This document shows positions 50,430 to 56,306 of a stretch of DNA of 64,000 nucleotides, piece after piece. How positions within the stretch are numbered: position 1 is the stretch's first letter; each line of letters starts with the position of its first letter. This stretch comes from Candidatus Sericytochromatia bacterium (lineage in GTDB: Bacteria > Cyanobacteriota > Sericytochromatia > S15B-MN24 > UBA4093): contig JAKFCT010000014.1 in NCBI GenBank assembly GCA_036676495.1, positions 1 to 64,000 of the forward strand. The letters are read 5' to 3'. The notes below the pieces were generated by a model. That model was not told the DNA's origin, made no database searches, and saw nothing but the letters and a program-made list of their open reading frames with translations. The translations under genes and the position numbers were made by a program.

Positions 50430-51283
50430 CAGCGCGCTCCCCGGGTCGTGACGCGCGAGAGCCAGCGCTCCCACCAGGTGGTTTCCGGTTCGGCTAGCGC
50501 GTCCTGGCCTTCGAACGGCAGGTAGATGGGGCCCCCCTTGCGATCCTTGGCGACCGCGCGGGCATTCTGCTTGACCGAGCGACGGGCTTCCTCCTGGGTC
50601 ACGCTCGACTGGAAGCCGCGGGGGATGACGAGCTCGGGGAACGGCCCGTCCTGCGGGCGATAATCGAGTGCCAAAAGATACTCCTCGGCGTCCAGGAGGC
50701 TCAGGTTGCGGCCGAAGCCGGCATGGAGCCCCGCGCGGTAGCAACGGGTCGTGTAGGTTTCATGTTCGAAGCCGTAGAGGCCGTAGCGCTCGTTGAACGC
50801 TCCGACGGTCTCGACGACCTGCGCGGTGAGGACCATGAAGACGCCGCCCGGGGGCTCGAACTCCCCGATGGTGAAGCCGTCGACGACGGACTTCTTCTTG
50901 AGGCGGTGGCGTCGGGAATCGTTGAAGTTGAAGTGCTGGATGCCGGTGGCGGCGATCGCCTCGGCGTAGAGCGTCGCCCAGCCGCTCTTGACCGGGTAGC
51001 AATCGTCATCGAAAAGGAAGATCACCTCGCAGCCGGCCAGGGCCGAGAGGCAGCGGTTCTTGGCCTTGGCGATGCCAAGGCGCTCCGGGCTGTTGAGGAC
51101 CATGAGCGCGGGATCCGCGGCCTGCGCCTCGGCCAGGACGCGTTCGGTCTCGTCGTCGCTCGCGTCGTTGACGACCATGAGGCGATAGGGCTCCGGAGTA
51201 TGGGCGCGAAGTTGCCGGAGGGTATTCGCGAGGACCGGCGCCCGATTGCGGGTCGTGACGCCGATGCCGAAGCGGGGGGTCAT
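50429..51283 (-). CDS. Glycosyltransferase family 2
   Basis: TTRNR, VVNDASDD, GIAKAKN, FLFDDD. Confidence 0.85.
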   Translation of the reverse strand: MTPRFGIGVTTRNRAPVLANTLRQLRAHTPEPYRLMVVNDASDDETERVLAEAQAADPALMVLNSPERLGIAKAKNRCLSALAGCEVIFLFDDDCYPVKSGWATLYAEAIAATGIQHFNFNDSRRHRLKKKSVVDGFTIGEFEPPGGVFMVLTAQVVETVGAFNERYGLYGFEHETYTTRCYRAGLHAGFGRNLSLLDAEEYLLALDYRPQDGPFPELVIPRGFQSSVTQEEARRSVKQNARAVAKDRKGGPIYLPFEGQDALAEPETTWWERWLSRVTTRGAR

Positions 51284-52632
51284 GAACGGGGGTCTCCTTC
51301 GGGCATGCGGGTTTCGGCCGTTGCCGGGGGCATGCCGAGTGCGGCGGCCAGCTGAGCCACCACGGCTTCGGCGGCTCCAGCCGGGCCCATGACCTGGCTG
51401 ATGGCCAGCTTGATCTCGCGCCGGCGCGGCGGGCTGGAGAGCAGGTCGAGGGCGGTGCGGGAAACCTCTTCGGGAGGGAAGACGCCCTTGAGCTCGGGAG
51501 TCAGCATGCGTCCCGCGCGAACGTTGGGAAGCGCGGTCAGGGAGGTCCGGCGGGCCACGGCCTGGACCAGCTGGCGCTTGAGCCACTTTCCGACGAGGGG
51601 GAGGTTTCCGACCTGACCGGGCAAGCCGTCCAGCGGAATCTCCTCGGGCTTGTTGAGCGGCAGGAGCACGAGCATCGGGACGCCCAGGATGGCGAGCTCG
51701 GCGGTGTTGGTGCCGGGGACGGTCATCGCGAGGTCGGCGATCGCCATGCCCGCCAGGTGATGCTCGGGGGCGAGCACCCGAATCTGCGCTCCCTGCGGGG
51801 TCACCAGCACGGCGCGGTCGTCGTTGGTGATCAGACGGGCGGTCGTCCCCCCGGTGACCGAGGCGTAGCGCTCGTTGGAGGCCGCCTCGGCAATCTGGGA
51901 GAGCGGCGTCCACGGGCTTTGGTGCATGACGAACTGCAGCCCGGGGTTCGCCTGGTGCATGAGCTCGGCGACTCGCAGCAGCAGCGGGGTGATGAACTTG
52001 ACCTTGAAGGGCTTGCTGCCGGGCAAGAGGCCGATGATCATCTCTTCGGAGTTGAGCCCCAGCGCCCGGCGGGTCTGATGGGGGTCGAGATCGCGGCGCA
52101 CGGCATCCACCATGAGGTTGCCGACCATGGCCACCTTGGAGGCGGGCAAGCGCATCTTCTGGAGGCGCGCGGAGACGTCGGCATCGCTGGTCAGGAAGCG
52201 GGTGACGAAGGGCGCCCAGCGGCCGGTGGTTTCGGTGTAAACGAAGAGCGGCTGGCGCAGGCGGCGGGAGAGCATGACCCCGAAAGCCTGGTCTCCGCCC
52301 ATGAAGAGGACCGCCCCCGGCCCCCGTTCGGGCAAGGGCCCCCGAAAGATCCGTCGGATCGTCTCGTCCGGGCGCCAGACTTCAATAAGCCCGTCACTCA
52401 GGCCGTCAGGCCGTTCAAGGAGGCTTTCCGGCGCCGCAGGCGCGATGTCTGCGCCCCAGCCGGCGATGGTCTCGGCTTCCTGACCGCTCGCATAGGGGCA
52501 AGGCACCAGGGCGATCCGCAGCTTCACGCCCGGCAGCGCCGTGCGGAGCACGCGGACGACCGGTCGCACCCAGGTGGCGAGCTCGCCGGGGCCGTTGGAG
52601 ATGATGGTGATGGTTGCCTGCATGGATGTCAC
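51280..52632 (-). CDS. Lipid-A-disaccharide synthase (LpxB)-related glycosyltransferase
   Basis: SNGPGEL..WVRP, VGNLMVD, LLPGSK, PGTNTAELA; start 52632 or 52623. Confidence 0.78.
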   Translation of the reverse strand: MTSMQATITIISNGPGELATWVRPVVRVLRTALPGVKLRIALVPCPYASGQEAETIAGWGADIAPAAPESLLERPDGLSDGLIEVWRPDETIRRIFRGPLPERGPGAVLFMGGDQAFGVMLSRRLRQPLFVYTETTGRWAPFVTRFLTSDADVSARLQKMRLPASKVAMVGNLMVDAVRRDLDPHQTRRALGLNSEEMIIGLLPGSKPFKVKFITPLLLRVAELMHQANPGLQFVMHQSPWTPLSQIAEAASNERYASVTGGTTARLITNDDRAVLVTPQGAQIRVLAPEHHLAGMAIADLAMTVPGTNTAELAILGVPMLVLLPLNKPEEIPLDGLPGQVGNLPLVGKWLKRQLVQAVARRTSLTALPNVRAGRMLTPELKGVFPPEEVSRTALDLLSSPPRRREIKLAISQVMGPAGAAEAVVAQLAAALGMPPATAETRMPEGDPRS

Positions 52633-52773
52633 CGGCGGCCTCGGCGGCCAAGCGTTGCGTCCCCCCCATTCTAGCCCGTGCGGGAAGGCACGTAAAGGCC
52701 GAGAGGCCCGCCCCAGGGGGCAAGGCCTCTCGAAACGGCTCGTCGAACCCGGTGGGTTCGGCGGGGATGCGGC

Positions 52774-53328
52774 TTAGACGCGGTCCATCTCGCGGCCCAA
52801 GAGGGCCAGGTGAGACTGGTTGACGATGCACTCCGTGTAGCAATCGCAGCCGCAGCGCTGGCAAAGGGTCGCGATCAGGTCGCGATCCCCCATGAACGCG
52901 GCCGTGACGAAGCTCCTCAGCCCGCGGTGCATGGCCTTGGTATCGTCCGGGCTCATCTTGGCCAGGATGCCGTCCAGCCGCTCGCGCCGCTCGGAGCGCA
53001 CCCGCTCGAGCAGCGCGAGGCCGGTCTCGGTGACCGTGAGTTCCGATTGCCGGCGGTCCTTCGCATTCTCCTGGCGGGTGACGAGATCCTTGGCCACCAG
53101 GCGGTCGACCGCCTTGGTCGCCGCCGGGTAACTGATGCCCAGGCCATCCGCCAGGTCCCCCACGTAGTTGGGGTTATGCCTCGCCAGGAAGAGCAGGGCC
53201 TGGACCTGGGCCGGGGTAATGTCCAGGTCCTCCAGCTCTTTGAGCGGCTCGTTGATCAAGACCTTCCCGAAGAGATCCACGAACAACTCGAACAGGGTCT
53301 CCGTATCACGCAGGAGCAGGTCTTTCAT
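52774..53328 (-). CDS. MarR family transcriptional regulator with Cys-rich C-terminal tail
   Basis: LADGLGISYPAATKAVDRLV, DRRQ..L.VTETG; tail CQRCGCDCYTEC. Confidence 0.9.
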   Translation of the reverse strand: MKDLLLRDTETLFELFVDLFGKVLINEPLKELEDLDITPAQVQALLFLARHNPNYVGDLADGLGISYPAATKAVDRLVAKDLVTRQENAKDRRQSELTVTETGLALLERVRSERRERLDGILAKMSPDDTKAMHRGLRSFVTAAFMGDRDLIATLCQRCGCDCYTECIVNQSHLALLGREMDRV

Positions 53329-53331
53329 GGG

Positions 53332-54399
53332 TTACCTCAGGACCGGAAGCTCGATCCGCGTCACCGAGTTGACGGAGACCTTGGCCGCCATGGCCTGGGC
53401 AATCCGCCGGAACGCGCCCGCCTGAGGCGATTGCGGCTCGGCCACGAAGACCGGTTCGCCCTTGTCGCCGCCGGTCCGGATCTTGGGATCCAGCGGGATC
53501 TCGCCGAGGAAGGGCACCTGGGCATAGGTGCTGGTCTTCTCGCCGCCGCCATGGTCGAAGATGGCCGTGGACTCGTTGCAATGGGGGCAGACGAAGGTGC
53601 TCATGTTCTCGATCAGGCCGAGAATGGGAACGTTGACCTGCTTGAACATGTTGAGGGTCTTCATGCCGATCTGCGCCGCGACCGGCTGGGGGGTGATCAC
53701 GATGACCGCGCCGGAGAGCGGAAGGATCTGGGTCAGGCTCAGGGGTACGTCACCGGTGCCCGGGGGCAGGTCGACCAGCAGGTAGTCGATCTCTCCCCAC
53801 TCGACATCCCGGACGAACTGCTGGAGCACGCCGGTCAGCATGGGGCCGCGCCAGATGACGGGATCGTCGTTGTTGGGCAGCATGAAGCCGATCGACATCA
53901 TCTTCACGCCATGGCGCTCGACCGGGATGATCCGGCCGTCGCGGGTGCCGGGGCGGCTGGTGGCTCCCATCATCAGGGGGATGGACGGGCCGTAGATGTC
54001 GGCGTCCAGGAGGCCCACCTTGGCTCCCGACTCCGCGAGGGCGAGGGCCAGGTTGACGGCGACGGTCGACTTGCCGACGCCGCCCTTGCCGGAACCCACC
54101 GCGATCACGTGCTTGATGCCGGCCGGACGATTCCCGTTGAGGGGCGCGCCGGTAGGGACGTTGGCCCCGAACGCGACGGTGACCTCGGTGACGCCGGGGA
54201 TCTGCTTGACCGCAGCCGTCGCCTCGTTGCGGATCTGGTCCTTGAGGGGACAGGCAGGGGTGGTCAGGACGACCTTGAAGGACACATGGCCCCCGTCGAC
54301 CTTCACGTCCTCGATCATGCCGAGCGTGACGAGATCCTTGCGGATCTCGGGGTCGTTGACGGTCGATAGCGCCTTCATGACTTGTTCGTTGGTGGGCAT
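53332..54399 (-). CDS. mrp: Mrp/ApbC (NBP35 family) Fe-S cluster carrier ATPase with N-terminal DUF59
   Basis: DPEI..D, LTTPACP, GKGGVGKST, DADIYGPS, DLPPGTGD, ENMS.FVCPHC. Confidence 0.95.
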   Translation of the reverse strand: MPTNEQVMKALSTVNDPEIRKDLVTLGMIEDVKVDGGHVSFKVVLTTPACPLKDQIRNEATAAVKQIPGVTEVTVAFGANVPTGAPLNGNRPAGIKHVIAVGSGKGGVGKSTVAVNLALALAESGAKVGLLDADIYGPSIPLMMGATSRPGTRDGRIIPVERHGVKMMSIGFMLPNNDDPVIWRGPMLTGVLQQFVRDVEWGEIDYLLVDLPPGTGDVPLSLTQILPLSGAVIVITPQPVAAQIGMKTLNMFKQVNVPILGLIENMSTFVCPHCNESTAIFDHGGGEKTSTYAQVPFLGEIPLDPKIRTGGDKGEPVFVAEPQSPQAGAFRRIAQAMAAKVSVNSVTRIELPVLR

Positions 54400-54450
54400 T
54401 CCAATCTCCTCGATACGGGAAGGGTCTCCCGGACCCCTCGACTCCCTTGA

Positions 54451-54479
54451 ATCTTAACGCGGTTAACCAAAAACGACAA
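54451..54479 (-). promoter_or_regulatory. Sigma70-type promoter of mrp-marR with embedded palindrome
   Basis: Minus strand TTGTCG-N17-TAAGAT; TTAAC-GCG-GTTAA at 54454-54466 overlaps the -10 and spacer. Confidence 0.7.
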
Positions 54480-54492
54480 GCATCCGAATCGT

Positions 54493-54526
54493 GAAAGGCC
54501 CCGCTCACCCGGGAGCGGGGCCTTTC
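54493..54526 (-). terminator. Intrinsic terminator of the antiporter gene
   Basis: GAAAGGCCCCGCTC-N6-GAGCGGGGCCTTTC. Confidence 0.8.
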
Positions 54527-54548
54527 GCAATGCCTCGCGACGGCGGAT

Positions 54549-56306
54549 TTACATCTCGGTGAGCGGCTTCAAGGAAGGAGGCCGTACGATCCCGGGATCG
54601 CGCGCGCCTTCGTGCTCATGATAGCCGGAAGGGAAGTAGAGCCGCATCGCCCGGGCGATCTCGCGCTCCCCCATGATGATCGTGTCGGCGCCCATCGATT
54701 GCAGATACGCCACCTCGCCGTCCGTATGAGCCCGCGAGACGATCACCAGGTCGGGATTGCGCAGCACCGTCTGCTCGATCAGATGTCCCGCATCGATGGC
54801 GTTCGGGATGGCCACGAACATGCGCGTCGCCGCGGTCACGTTGGCGGCCTCGATCAGTTCCGCGGGAGAGGCGGGCCCCATGAGCACTTCGATTCCGAGC
54901 GTGCGAAGCCGCTCGGCAATCTCCGGATTCTCCTCGATGACGAGGAATGGAACCTTCTCGGCCCGCAACGCCTCACCCAAGAGGGATCCCACGCGCCCAT
55001 AGCCGATCAGGATGACGTGATCGCGCAGGGAGGTCTTCCGCAGCCGCACGGGCACGGTCTCTGCCGCGGCCTCCCCGGCGCCGGCCTCGGAGGCCTCACG
55101 CAGTTCGAGCCAGGGACGCAAACGGTCCACCAGCGCGAAGACCATGGGGTTCAGCATGATCGAGAAGATGGCGCCCGCCAGGATCAAGTCCCGGGCCTGC
55201 ACCGGCAAGAGGTTGAGGCTGACTCCCAGGGTCGCGATGATGAAGGCGAATTCGCCAATCTGCGCCAAGCTCGCAGAGATCGTCAACGCCTTGCTCATCT
55301 TGTGGCCGAACGCGCGCACGATGAGCATCGCCGCCGCGGATTTTCCCACCATGATGATCCCGATGGTCGCGACCAGGGGCCAGAAGTCCCGGACGACGAT
55401 GGTCGGGTCGAGCATCATGCCGACCGAGACGAAGAAGAGGACGGCAAAGGCATCACGCAGGGGCAGGATCTCGGTGGCGGCCTGGTGGCTGAGCTCGGAT
55501 TCGCTCAGGATCATGCCGGCGAAGAACGCGCCCAGCGCGAAGGAGACCCCGAAGAGCTCCGCCGAGCCGAAGGCGACTCCCAGGGCGATGGCAAGAACGG
55601 CAAGCCGGAAGAGCTCCCGCGAGCCCGTCAGAGCGACACGATGGAGCAGCCAGGGGATGAAGCGGCGCCCCACGATCAGCATGACCGCGACGAAGGCCGT
55701 CACCTTCGCCAGGGTCAGGCCGATGCTCGCCAGAATGGCCTGCAGCCCCCCCGAGCCTCCCGCGGCCGTCGAATCCGTGCCGAGGATGCTGGCGAGCGCC
55801 GGGAGCAGGACGAGCGCCAGGACACAGGCGAGATCCTCGACGATGAGCCAGCCGATGGCGATGTGCCCCTGGCGCGTTTCGAGGAGATGGCGGTCCTGGA
55901 GGGCACGCAATAGGACCACGGTGCTCGCCGTGGCCAACGCAAAGCCGAAGACGAAGCCCGTCACGGACGACCAGCCCATGGCGAGCGCGAGCCCCCAGCC
56001 CATGAGGGTCGCCATGGCGATCTGTACGAGGGCCCCCGGAACGGCGATGGCCTTCACGGCCATGAGATCCTTCACCGAGAAATGCAGGCCCACCCCGAAC
56101 ATCAGGAGGATGACGCCGATCTCCGCGAGCTGGGGAGCCAGTTCGAGATCTCCCACGAACCCGGGCGTGAAGGGCCCGACCAGCACACCGGCCAGCAAAT
56201 AACCGACCAGAGGAGAGAGGCGCAGGCGCTGGGCCACCATCCCGAACAGAAACGCCAGGACCAGGCCCCCGACGATCAGGGCAATAAGTGAGGTATGATG
56301 GGGCAT
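54549..56306 (-). CDS. ybaL: YbaL/RosB-like cation:proton antiporter (CPA2) with TrkA-N domain
   Basis: PLVGYLLAG, LAEIGVILLMFGVGL, AQIGEFAF, IGYGRVG. Confidence 0.9.
   Translation of the reverse strand: MPHHTSLIALIVGGLVLAFLFGMVAQRLRLSPLVGYLLAGVLVGPFTPGFVGDLELAPQLAEIGVILLMFGVGLHFSVKDLMAVKAIAVPGALVQIAMATLMGWGLALAMGWSSVTGFVFGFALATASTVVLLRALQDRHLLETRQGHIAIGWLIVEDLACVLALVLLPALASILGTDSTAAGGSGGLQAILASIGLTLAKVTAFVAVMLIVGRRFIPWLLHRVALTGSRELFRLAVLAIALGVAFGSAELFGVSFALGAFFAGMILSESELSHQAATEILPLRDAFAVLFFVSVGMMLDPTIVVRDFWPLVATIGIIMVGKSAAAMLIVRAFGHKMSKALTISASLAQIGEFAFIIATLGVSLNLLPVQARDLILAGAIFSIMLNPMVFALVDRLRPWLELREASEAGAGEAAAETVPVRLRKTSLRDHVILIGYGRVGSLLGEALRAEKVPFLVIEENPEIAERLRTLGIEVLMGPASPAELIEAANVTAATRMFVAIPNAIDAGHLIEQTVLRNPDLVIVSRAHTDGEVAYLQSMGADTIIMGEREIARAMRLYFPSGYHEHEGARDPGIVRPPSLKPLTEM

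Follow-up and report, generated by a model that had tools for sequence, protein, structure and literature searches.

The window analysed here comprises 64,000 nucleotides (nt) of contig JAKFCT010000014.1 from a Candidatus Sericytochromatia bacterium and carries, on its minus strand, an mrp/apbC gene followed directly by the gene of a MarR-family regulator with a cysteine-bearing C-terminal tail. By comparison with related genomes, the order of the two genes, the cysteines of the tail and a palindrome at the mrp promoter were found to be conserved, and this candidate operator was found to occur together with the regulator. As the best explanation of these observations we propose a MarR protein with a metal centre, most likely an iron-sulfur (Fe-S) cluster, that would repress its own operon and a small regulon; taken as a whole, this explanation is offered tentatively, at slightly less than an even chance. 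A MarR dimer sitting on the palindrome over its own -10 element would block RNA polymerase, and the same protein would also repress a DUF2249 gene and, via tandem sites, the gene of a CDF exporter. The metal centre would be held by a C-terminal knuckle beside the dimer interface. With the cluster present the repressor would stay on the DNA; with clusters scarce or damaged (by O2, nitric oxide (NO) or thiophilic metals) the apo form would leave it, and the carrier and its partners would be made. Such a feedback loop would be of the IscR-isc or SufR-suf kind, but placed at the delivery step.

Linkage to mrp and the proposed palindromic operator

The mrp product was matched by the Pfam models ParA/NUBPL (PF10609; 4.6e-104, 347.6 bits) and FeS_assembly_P (2.3e-25, 89.1 bits); its N-terminus is formed by the DUF59/FeS_assembly_P domain, and a Walker A motif (GKGGVGKS) and a CPHC motif were read in the sequence. 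The NUBPL/ParA P-loop domain, the CxxC motif and the N-terminal DUF59 domain are shared with the Mrp/ApbC/NBP35 Fe-S carrier ATPases, but against NCBIfam the protein remained under the equivalog cut-offs of both ApbC (311.5 bits, cut-off 348) and MrpORP (325 bits, cut-off 450). Judged by its domains, it is an Fe-S cluster carrier P-loop ATPase of the Mrp/ApbC type that does not reach the equivalog level. Its stop codon is separated from the ATG of the MarR gene by 3 nt (CCC), as an earlier note on this DNA had stated, and GAGG is located 7 nt 5' of this ATG; the two genes probably form an operon and are putatively translationally coupled.

For analysis of the linkage, the 20 best loci of 41 class-level relatives were compared; f1 to f4 denote families, among which f1 and f4 belong to the order of the window. 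mrp was located directly upstream of the regulator gene in 18 of these 20 loci, comprising every f1 genome (10) and every f4 genome (8); the linkage to mrp in relatives, which the earlier note had proposed as a check, holds in 18/18 genomes of these two families. The two exceptions were L016 (family f2), in which a regulator with a His-type tail stands beside an MFS transporter and dnaE and in whose genome no mrp was found with the query used, and L020, a tail-less MarR paralogue. In four f3 genomes that lack the regulator, mrp had no MarR gene in its vicinity. Mrp-MarR fusions were considered for three f4 loci (L008, L010 and L012), in which the MarR frame is open for 365-537 codons across mrp, and were rejected because the two genes do not share a frame or stand apart; high G+C content accounts for the long open frames. 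No photosystem reaction-centre genes were found in any of the relatives searched (41/41).

The promoter hexamers TTGTCG and TAAGAT with a 17-nt spacer, and the inverted repeat over spacer and -10 element that the earlier note had described, are present in the sequence at the positions given in Table 1, and the same -35, spacer and -10 layout was found in loci L002-L007. The inverted repeat TTAACGCGGTTAA extends from the spacer into the -10 element, of which it takes in the first three bases. It is the one match to the palindrome in the 64-kb window even when 1 mismatch is allowed (0.03 expected; 3 of 100 shuffles matched), and the 4.14-Mb genome to which the window belongs (G000) holds 4 exact palindromes against 0.32 expected from base composition. 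In the 220 nt upstream of MarR-linked mrp genes, the palindrome was found with at most one mismatch in 14 of 17 regions (exact in 7, from three f1 genera, and with one mismatch in 7 more, from f4), and for none of these 14 palindromes did more than 4 of 1000 shuffles give a match. With the hexamers read by eye, the right arm of the palindrome begins the -10 element in f1, and the palindrome stands just after the -10 element in f4; RNA polymerase would be blocked with either placement.

Exact sites numbered 6, 4, 3, 2 and 1 in five f1 relatives, in which a reversed control pattern was found 0, 0, 1, 0 and 0 times, and 0, 0, 0, 0 and 1 in five f3 genomes without the regulator (control pattern 1, 7, 0, 0 and 2). 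The mrp loci of four f3 genomes with no MarR gene nearby contained no palindrome-like site. By this comparison, candidate operator and regulator go together, in presence and in absence, across f1, f4 and f3. Loci that retain the site also retain the recognition-helix segment PAATKAVDRL, whereas genus g3, with a differing site, has ASATK at this place. From these patterns we infer that the MarR protein quite probably binds the palindrome TTAAC-N3-GTTAA and that binding would mean repression.

Sites were also found at other genes. A gene for a 75-amino-acid (75-aa) DUF2249 protein (PF10006, 6.1e-19) has an exact site 29-122 nt upstream in 5 of the 5 f1 genomes that carry the gene (two genera); no exact site was found upstream of the DUF2249 gene of one f3 genome (0/1). 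In the genus of the window, the DUF2249 gene is divergent from a gene for a metY-like sulfhydrylase, a pyridoxal-phosphate (PLP) enzyme of Cys/Met metabolism. The gene of the CDF exporter (Cation_efflux, 155.6 bits, with ZT_dimer and a His-rich N-terminus) shares a contig with mrp, at a distance of 15-19 kb, in each of the 6 f1 genomes checked. Upstream of this gene, a site with at most one mismatch is present in 5 of these 6 genomes; pairs of sites 16 nt apart are likewise present in 5/6, and none of 1000 shuffles matched this count of pairs; two evaluable CDF genes of f3 (41-42% identical) have no sites. Because of the sites at the DUF2249 and CDF exporter genes, the circuit would be a small regulon and not autoregulation of the carrier alone. 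The DUF2249 domain has been linked to denitrification and to hemerythrin-like proteins (PMC11218638, PMC6282519) and is fused to a P-loop Fe-S carrier protein in Haloferax mediterranei (PMC11218638).

A second conserved box, TGAGSTAKCTCA, was noted about 27 nt from the palindrome at DUF2249/metY; it is lacking in the mrp promoter and was also seen near TTAACC-N-GGTTAA sites in L027, L035 and L038.

The cysteine tail of the regulator

The regulator was assigned to the MarR family by a winged helix-turn-helix domain above the Pfam gathering scores (MarR_2, PF12802, 5.2e-17, 62.2 bits against 27; MarR, PF01047, 45 bits against 24.6); NCBIfam gave no specific family, with all matches far under their cut-offs. 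Beyond the MarR core, the protein has a C-terminal extension of 35-40 aa with the tail sequence LCQRCGCDCYTEC. Its sole cysteines (C156, C159, C161, C163 and C167) all lie in CQRCGCDCYTEC. All five cysteines named in the earlier note are therefore present, but only C156, C159, C163 and C167 are conserved, and C161 varies.

Within the order, the knuckle cysteines are kept in 18 of 19 tail-bearing loci, and the nineteenth, L016, has His as third ligand. Close homologues (n = 20) were gathered by word search; among the 16 with at least 49% identity, C-x2-C-G-x-[DE]-C-x3-C is kept in 15, and conservation of the cysteine spacing, a check proposed in the earlier note, was observed for four cysteines in register. 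A HMMER search over 1.84 billion cluster representatives returned 383 proteins at E <= 1e-10. Among the best 150 representatives, C-x2-C-x3-[H/C]-x3-C was present in at least 79 (76 with His, 3 with Cys); a further 30 or so have C-x2-C-x7-C but a different residue at the third ligand position. An alignment of 75 members shows no variation at C156, C159 and C167, and more than 90% of them have G160 and a His at position 163. The family consensus reads [VI]-C-L-[RH]-C-G-x-[ED]-H-x-x-[DE]-C-[PVLI]-[VL]-N, and the last knuckle cysteine is followed by Pro in 30 of 81 family members. In a quick maximum-likelihood tree of 126 rows (midpoint root; support by the Shimodaira-Hasegawa-like approximate likelihood-ratio test (SH-aLRT) only; careful search unfinished), the proteins with Cys at ligand 3 nest within the His-type family with 2 changes, the rows from the order of the window all fall in one weakly supported group (85), and the window protein is included in a starred clade (96).

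Judged by these alignments, the tail marks a broad, unnamed MarR subfamily that is mostly of the Cys3-His type. The tail is not specific to mrp. No solved structure, Pfam model or NCBIfam model covering the tail was found. Searched alone against the sequences of the PDB, the tail gave no match at E <= 10, and whole-protein profile matches to PDB sequences stop by position 149 of 183. In the ESM Atlas, the whole protein matched generic MarR clusters only, mostly from Armatimonadota and Acidobacteriota, and the tail alone gave no usable match. Tail-bearing genes elsewhere have varied neighbours. In a metagenome-assembled genome of Bacillota (L044, 3914-7392), about 490 nt separate a MarR gene with a His-type tail from the gene of a qNOR-type nitric-oxide reductase downstream of it on the same strand. 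MscS, a methyltransferase and an Rrf2 regulator are neighbours in L047, L049, L050 and L075; an ADP-forming acetyl-CoA synthetase, a DRTGG protein and a hexapeptide transferase are neighbours in L061-L066; and a radical SAM enzyme is the neighbour in L072.

The structure was predicted with AlphaFold2 from a 75-row alignment, giving a mean predicted local distance difference test (pLDDT) of 93.8 and a predicted template modelling score (pTM) of 0.85; the tail, with pLDDT 87-93, was modelled as a short helix (149-155), the knuckle and a last helix (168-177). Foldseek returned MarR proteins only, with YusO, MepR and MarR at the top (probability 1.00) and alignments of at most 144 columns. A homodimer model reached a score of 0.80, whereas the best of three controls had 0.00; the mark of 0.80 was attained by 20 of 30 known pairs and by 1 of 23 single chains. 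The three runs agreed in 100% of contacts, with a partner pLDDT of at least 84; this pass may stem from likeness to solved MarR dimers. The modelled interface includes residues 5-24 and 114-148 together with tail residues 151, 154-155, 158-159, 161 and 166-169, and the knuckle would thereby be placed where its occupancy could change dimer geometry. We infer that the tail very likely binds a metal centre.

Features around the operon and rejected sites

Coordinates of the features are collected in Table 1. An lpxB-like glycosyltransferase gene (51280-52632, minus strand), whose LpxB match is weak (39.5 bits), is located 3' of the MarR gene; it follows the MarR gene in 9 of 10 f1 loci (L007 being cut by the contig end) and in 0 f4 loci. 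Because the lpxB-like gene has a separate promoter-like site, the transcription unit was taken to be mrp-marR. Upstream, a ybaL-like gene was assigned by NF007950 (715.6 bits), and the hairpin after it probably shields the mrp promoter from read-through. The hairpin in the 5' untranslated region (5'-UTR) of mrp is kept in 3 genomes of this genus only and is absent from the shorter UTRs of other genera; a search of eight loci against Rfam gave no match.

Table 1. Features of the mrp-marR region and of a proposed regulon locus (window positions unless another contig is named)
Feature	Position	Strand	Remarks
mrp/apbC	53332-54399	minus	355 aa, stop TAA at 53334-53332
MarR-family regulator gene	52774-53328	minus	184 aa, ATG at 53328
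Putative sigma-70-type promoter of mrp (TTGTCG, 17 nt, TAAGAT)	54451-54479	minus	-35 at 54479-54474, -10 at 54456-54451
Proposed operator, palindrome TTAAC-N3-GTTAA	54454-54466		Minus-strand reading TTAACCGCGTTAA within GGTTAACC
Cys knuckle C156-x2-C159-x3-C163-x3-C167 (with non-conserved C161)	52828-52863	minus	Proposed metal or Fe-S site
Hairpin in the mrp 5'-UTR	54420-54439	minus	RNAalifold on 3 sequences: 16 pairs, 3 with compensatory changes
G+C-rich hairpin after the upstream ybaL-like gene	54494-54522	minus	Read in the sequence; short T-run, so not listed by the terminator scan
Putative promoter of the downstream lpxB-like gene (TTTACG, 17 nt, TAGAAT)	52668-52696	minus	Sole promoter-like match of the scan in 52400-54800
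Divergent pair of DUF2249 gene and PLP enzyme gene	C28:161965-163600 (own genome)		Locus L022 3463-5139

Two exact palindromes of the same genome (C10:64139 and C10:67499) were rejected as regulon members, as conservation elsewhere was lacking and the two resemble each other over longer flanks. These two copies of CTTAACCAYGTTAACCGA (locus L021) flank a 3.3-kb AT-rich stretch that encodes a HIT protein, a protein without Pfam match and a SIR2_2-domain protein and that is possibly a small mobile or defence island. The palindromes at C14:81425-81530, situated between convergent genes, were read as a hairpin or terminator region and not as sites; this AT-rich gap (L023 11426-11530) contains a perfect palindrome of 41 nt and, in addition, TTAA-N5-TTAA repeats at a distance of 16 nt.

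Nature of the proposed metal centre and comparison with known regulators

That the centre in the tail is an Fe-S cluster is given a little less than an even chance. A cluster is favoured because three cysteines are fixed and the fourth ligand is variable, which is the pattern of [4Fe-4S](Cys)3X regulators such as ArnR (PMC12343034), and because the motif is ferredoxin-like and often ends in Cys-Pro (the ferredoxin motif being C-X2-C-X2-C-X3-C-P; PMC4500134). It is favoured further because Mrp and DUF2249 are the partners and because some relatives stand in NO- or redox-related contexts.

Several findings weigh against the proposed Fe-S-sensing autorepressor. The mrp link is confined to one order: outside it, mrp adjoins neither any of the 5 loci with a tail among 12 from species genomes nor any of the 15 with a tail among 22 from metagenomes, in a census that is small (20 tail-bearing loci) and reached only relatives carrying PAATKLVDR. 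The proposal of the earlier note, that the MarR protein autoregulates the carrier and reads cluster or metal status through its tail, is supported in part: the cysteines, the linkage and the palindrome footprint (14/17) agree with it, but the tail is not mrp-specific (0/20 elsewhere) and sites are also present at the DUF2249 and CDF exporter genes. The homologue P0013 (56% identical) is without the second cysteine. The mrp promoter is weak: with 8 of 12 consensus positions it stays under the threshold of 9/12 of the consensus scan, which for this reason did not report it. The MarR protein itself is tied to the palindrome by co-occurrence. Four separate Rrf2 genes elsewhere in the genome could act as IscR- or NsrR-type regulators. 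With a His-rich CDF exporter among the putative targets, direct sensing of Zn, Co or Cd would account for the regulon at least as well as Fe-S sensing, and the spacing C-x2-C-x3-H-x3-C is near that of a Cys-Cys-His-Cys zinc knuckle. A 2024 review gives the Zn sensors AdcR and ZitR as the only characterised MarR metalloregulators (PMC11672702).

In place of a cluster, the knuckle (Cys4 here, Cys3-His elsewhere) could bind Zn(II), Co(II) or Cd(II) and act as a direct sensor in which the metal releases the repressor; the CDF exporter would then remove the metal, and Mrp, the DUF2249 protein and the sulfhydrylase would repair Fe-S damage caused by it. The tandem palindromes before the His-rich exporter in 5/6 f1 genomes and the Cys-Cys-His-Cys layout of the motif speak for a direct sensor, as do the response to Zn of the sole characterised MarR metal sensors (PMC11672702) and the reported disassembly of the SoxR Fe-S cluster by excess Zn (PMC12818246). 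However, about 30 of the best 150 representatives have neither His nor Cys at ligand 3, which is unusual for a tetrahedral Zn site, and the contexts elsewhere (qNOR, Rrf2, radical SAM, acetyl-CoA synthetase) are unrelated to metal efflux; the f3 CDF genes that lack sites, being only 41-42% identical, say little. With these points on either side, direct sensing of a metal ion is given clearly less than an even chance but stands as a strong rival to the cluster. A structural Zn site, or a thiol-disulfide (Zn-thiolate) redox switch, with an oxidant or a small ligand in the MarR pocket as the signal, is regarded as distinctly unlikely. CxxC pairs are classical redox switches, and the tail, which touches the partner subunit in the dimer model, could merely stabilise the dimer. 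Most MarR proteins respond to ligands or to cysteine oxidation (PMC11672702). A purely structural site, however, would leave the fixed pairing with mrp in 18/18 genomes unexplained, and equally the shared operator on metal- and Fe-S-related genes, and it is not readily matched by a variable ligand 3.

That the palindrome belongs to another transcription factor of the lineage, with the MarR protein regulating other targets or another site of the mrp promoter, is considered very unlikely. Binding of the palindrome by the MarR protein is a prediction from genome comparison, the DUF2249/metY sites share the second box that the mrp promoter lacks, and 3 of 17 mrp promoters (L015, L017 and L019) are without the palindrome, a finding that counts against the proposed autorepressor as well. 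Against another factor, the MarR gene is the sole regulator gene adjoining any of these sites, site and regulator are jointly present or absent across f1, f4 and f3, and the recognition-helix segment changes in g3 together with the site. In addition, the 5-N3-5 layout resembles the ChlR site TTMCC-N3/4-GGWAA (PMC13421787).

ChlR (Sll1512 / SynPCC7002_A1993) is a MarR-type [4Fe-4S] oxygen sensor of cyanobacteria and as such a precedent for an Fe-S cluster in a MarR protein; MarR fold, homodimer, cyanobacterial phylum and a similar palindrome layout are common to it and the window protein (PMC13421787, PMC4500134). ChlR differs in its length of 135 aa, in its proposed N-terminal ligands Cys18 and Cys25 (C-X4-6-C-P) with one cluster per dimer, and in activating chlAII-ho2-hemN, whereas the window protein has 184 aa, no cysteine before residue 156, a C-terminal Cys4 knuckle and an operator in a repressor-type position, with mrp, the ybaL-like gene and the lpxB-like gene as neighbours. 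With IscR-isc and SufR-suf the proposed circuit shares its logic, namely a regulator in the operon it controls that is thought to read Fe-S status via a Cys-ligated cluster. The window operon, however, holds a cluster carrier (Mrp/ApbC) and not the scaffold and desulfurase machinery. The window protein differs in fold: it gave no match to the Rrf2 domain (PF02082) at E <= 0.01, and no SufR model was among its NCBIfam matches. In Synechocystis SufR, which represses sufBCDS, C164, C171 and C206 hold a [4Fe-4S] cluster (PMC13421787); these cysteines are spaced, in contrast to those of the window protein, which lie within 12 residues, so that architecture and ligand spacing differ.

ArnR of Corynebacterium glutamicum likewise combines an N-terminal winged-helix domain with three C-terminal cysteines, and it forms a dimer with a [4Fe-4S](Cys)3X cluster that is sensitive to NO (PMC12343034). 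By its description, however, the cysteines (179, 193 and 223) are spread over a separate C-terminal domain, and the targets are narK and hmp (PMC12343034). AdcR and ZitR are MarR-family metal sensors as well (PMC11672702), but the window protein scored 30.9 bits against the cut-off of 175 for NF038251, and these proteins have two neighbouring pseudotetrahedral Zn sites and co-repress Zn uptake genes, in contrast to the C-terminal Cys knuckle of the window protein. In the literature covered, from which subscription journals were outside, no description of a Cys-tailed MarR protein or of a dedicated Mrp/ApbC regulator was found, in agreement with the earlier note, which had not recognised this system as a described one.

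A wider proposal, held to be possible but on balance doubtful, is that the tail defines a large unnamed class of Fe-S-sensing MarR regulators with a ferredoxin-like site C-x2-C-x3-H/C-x3-C(P), spread over many bacterial phyla and recruited to varied stress regulons, with NO reductase and radical SAM as examples. Within the non-photosynthetic cyanobacterial lineage of the window, the class would provide a third dedicated regulator of Fe-S homeostasis beside IscR and SufR, acting at the delivery step; Mrp, encoded on the transcript that also carries the repressor gene, would supply this repressor with its cluster, and the same switch would couple Fe-S delivery to the export of cluster-poisoning metals.

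The loops of IscR and SufR act on cluster assembly and not on delivery, the step to which the proposed circuit would belong. A MarR protein with a C-terminal Cys3-His or Cys4 site would add a second, structurally different metal-centre readout to the largest family of one-component regulators, and the predicted regulon of mrp, DUF2249 and CDF exporter offers a first functional handle on DUF2249. With the module present in some 100 or more clusters of sequences (50% identity level), a single biochemical characterisation would annotate many genes.

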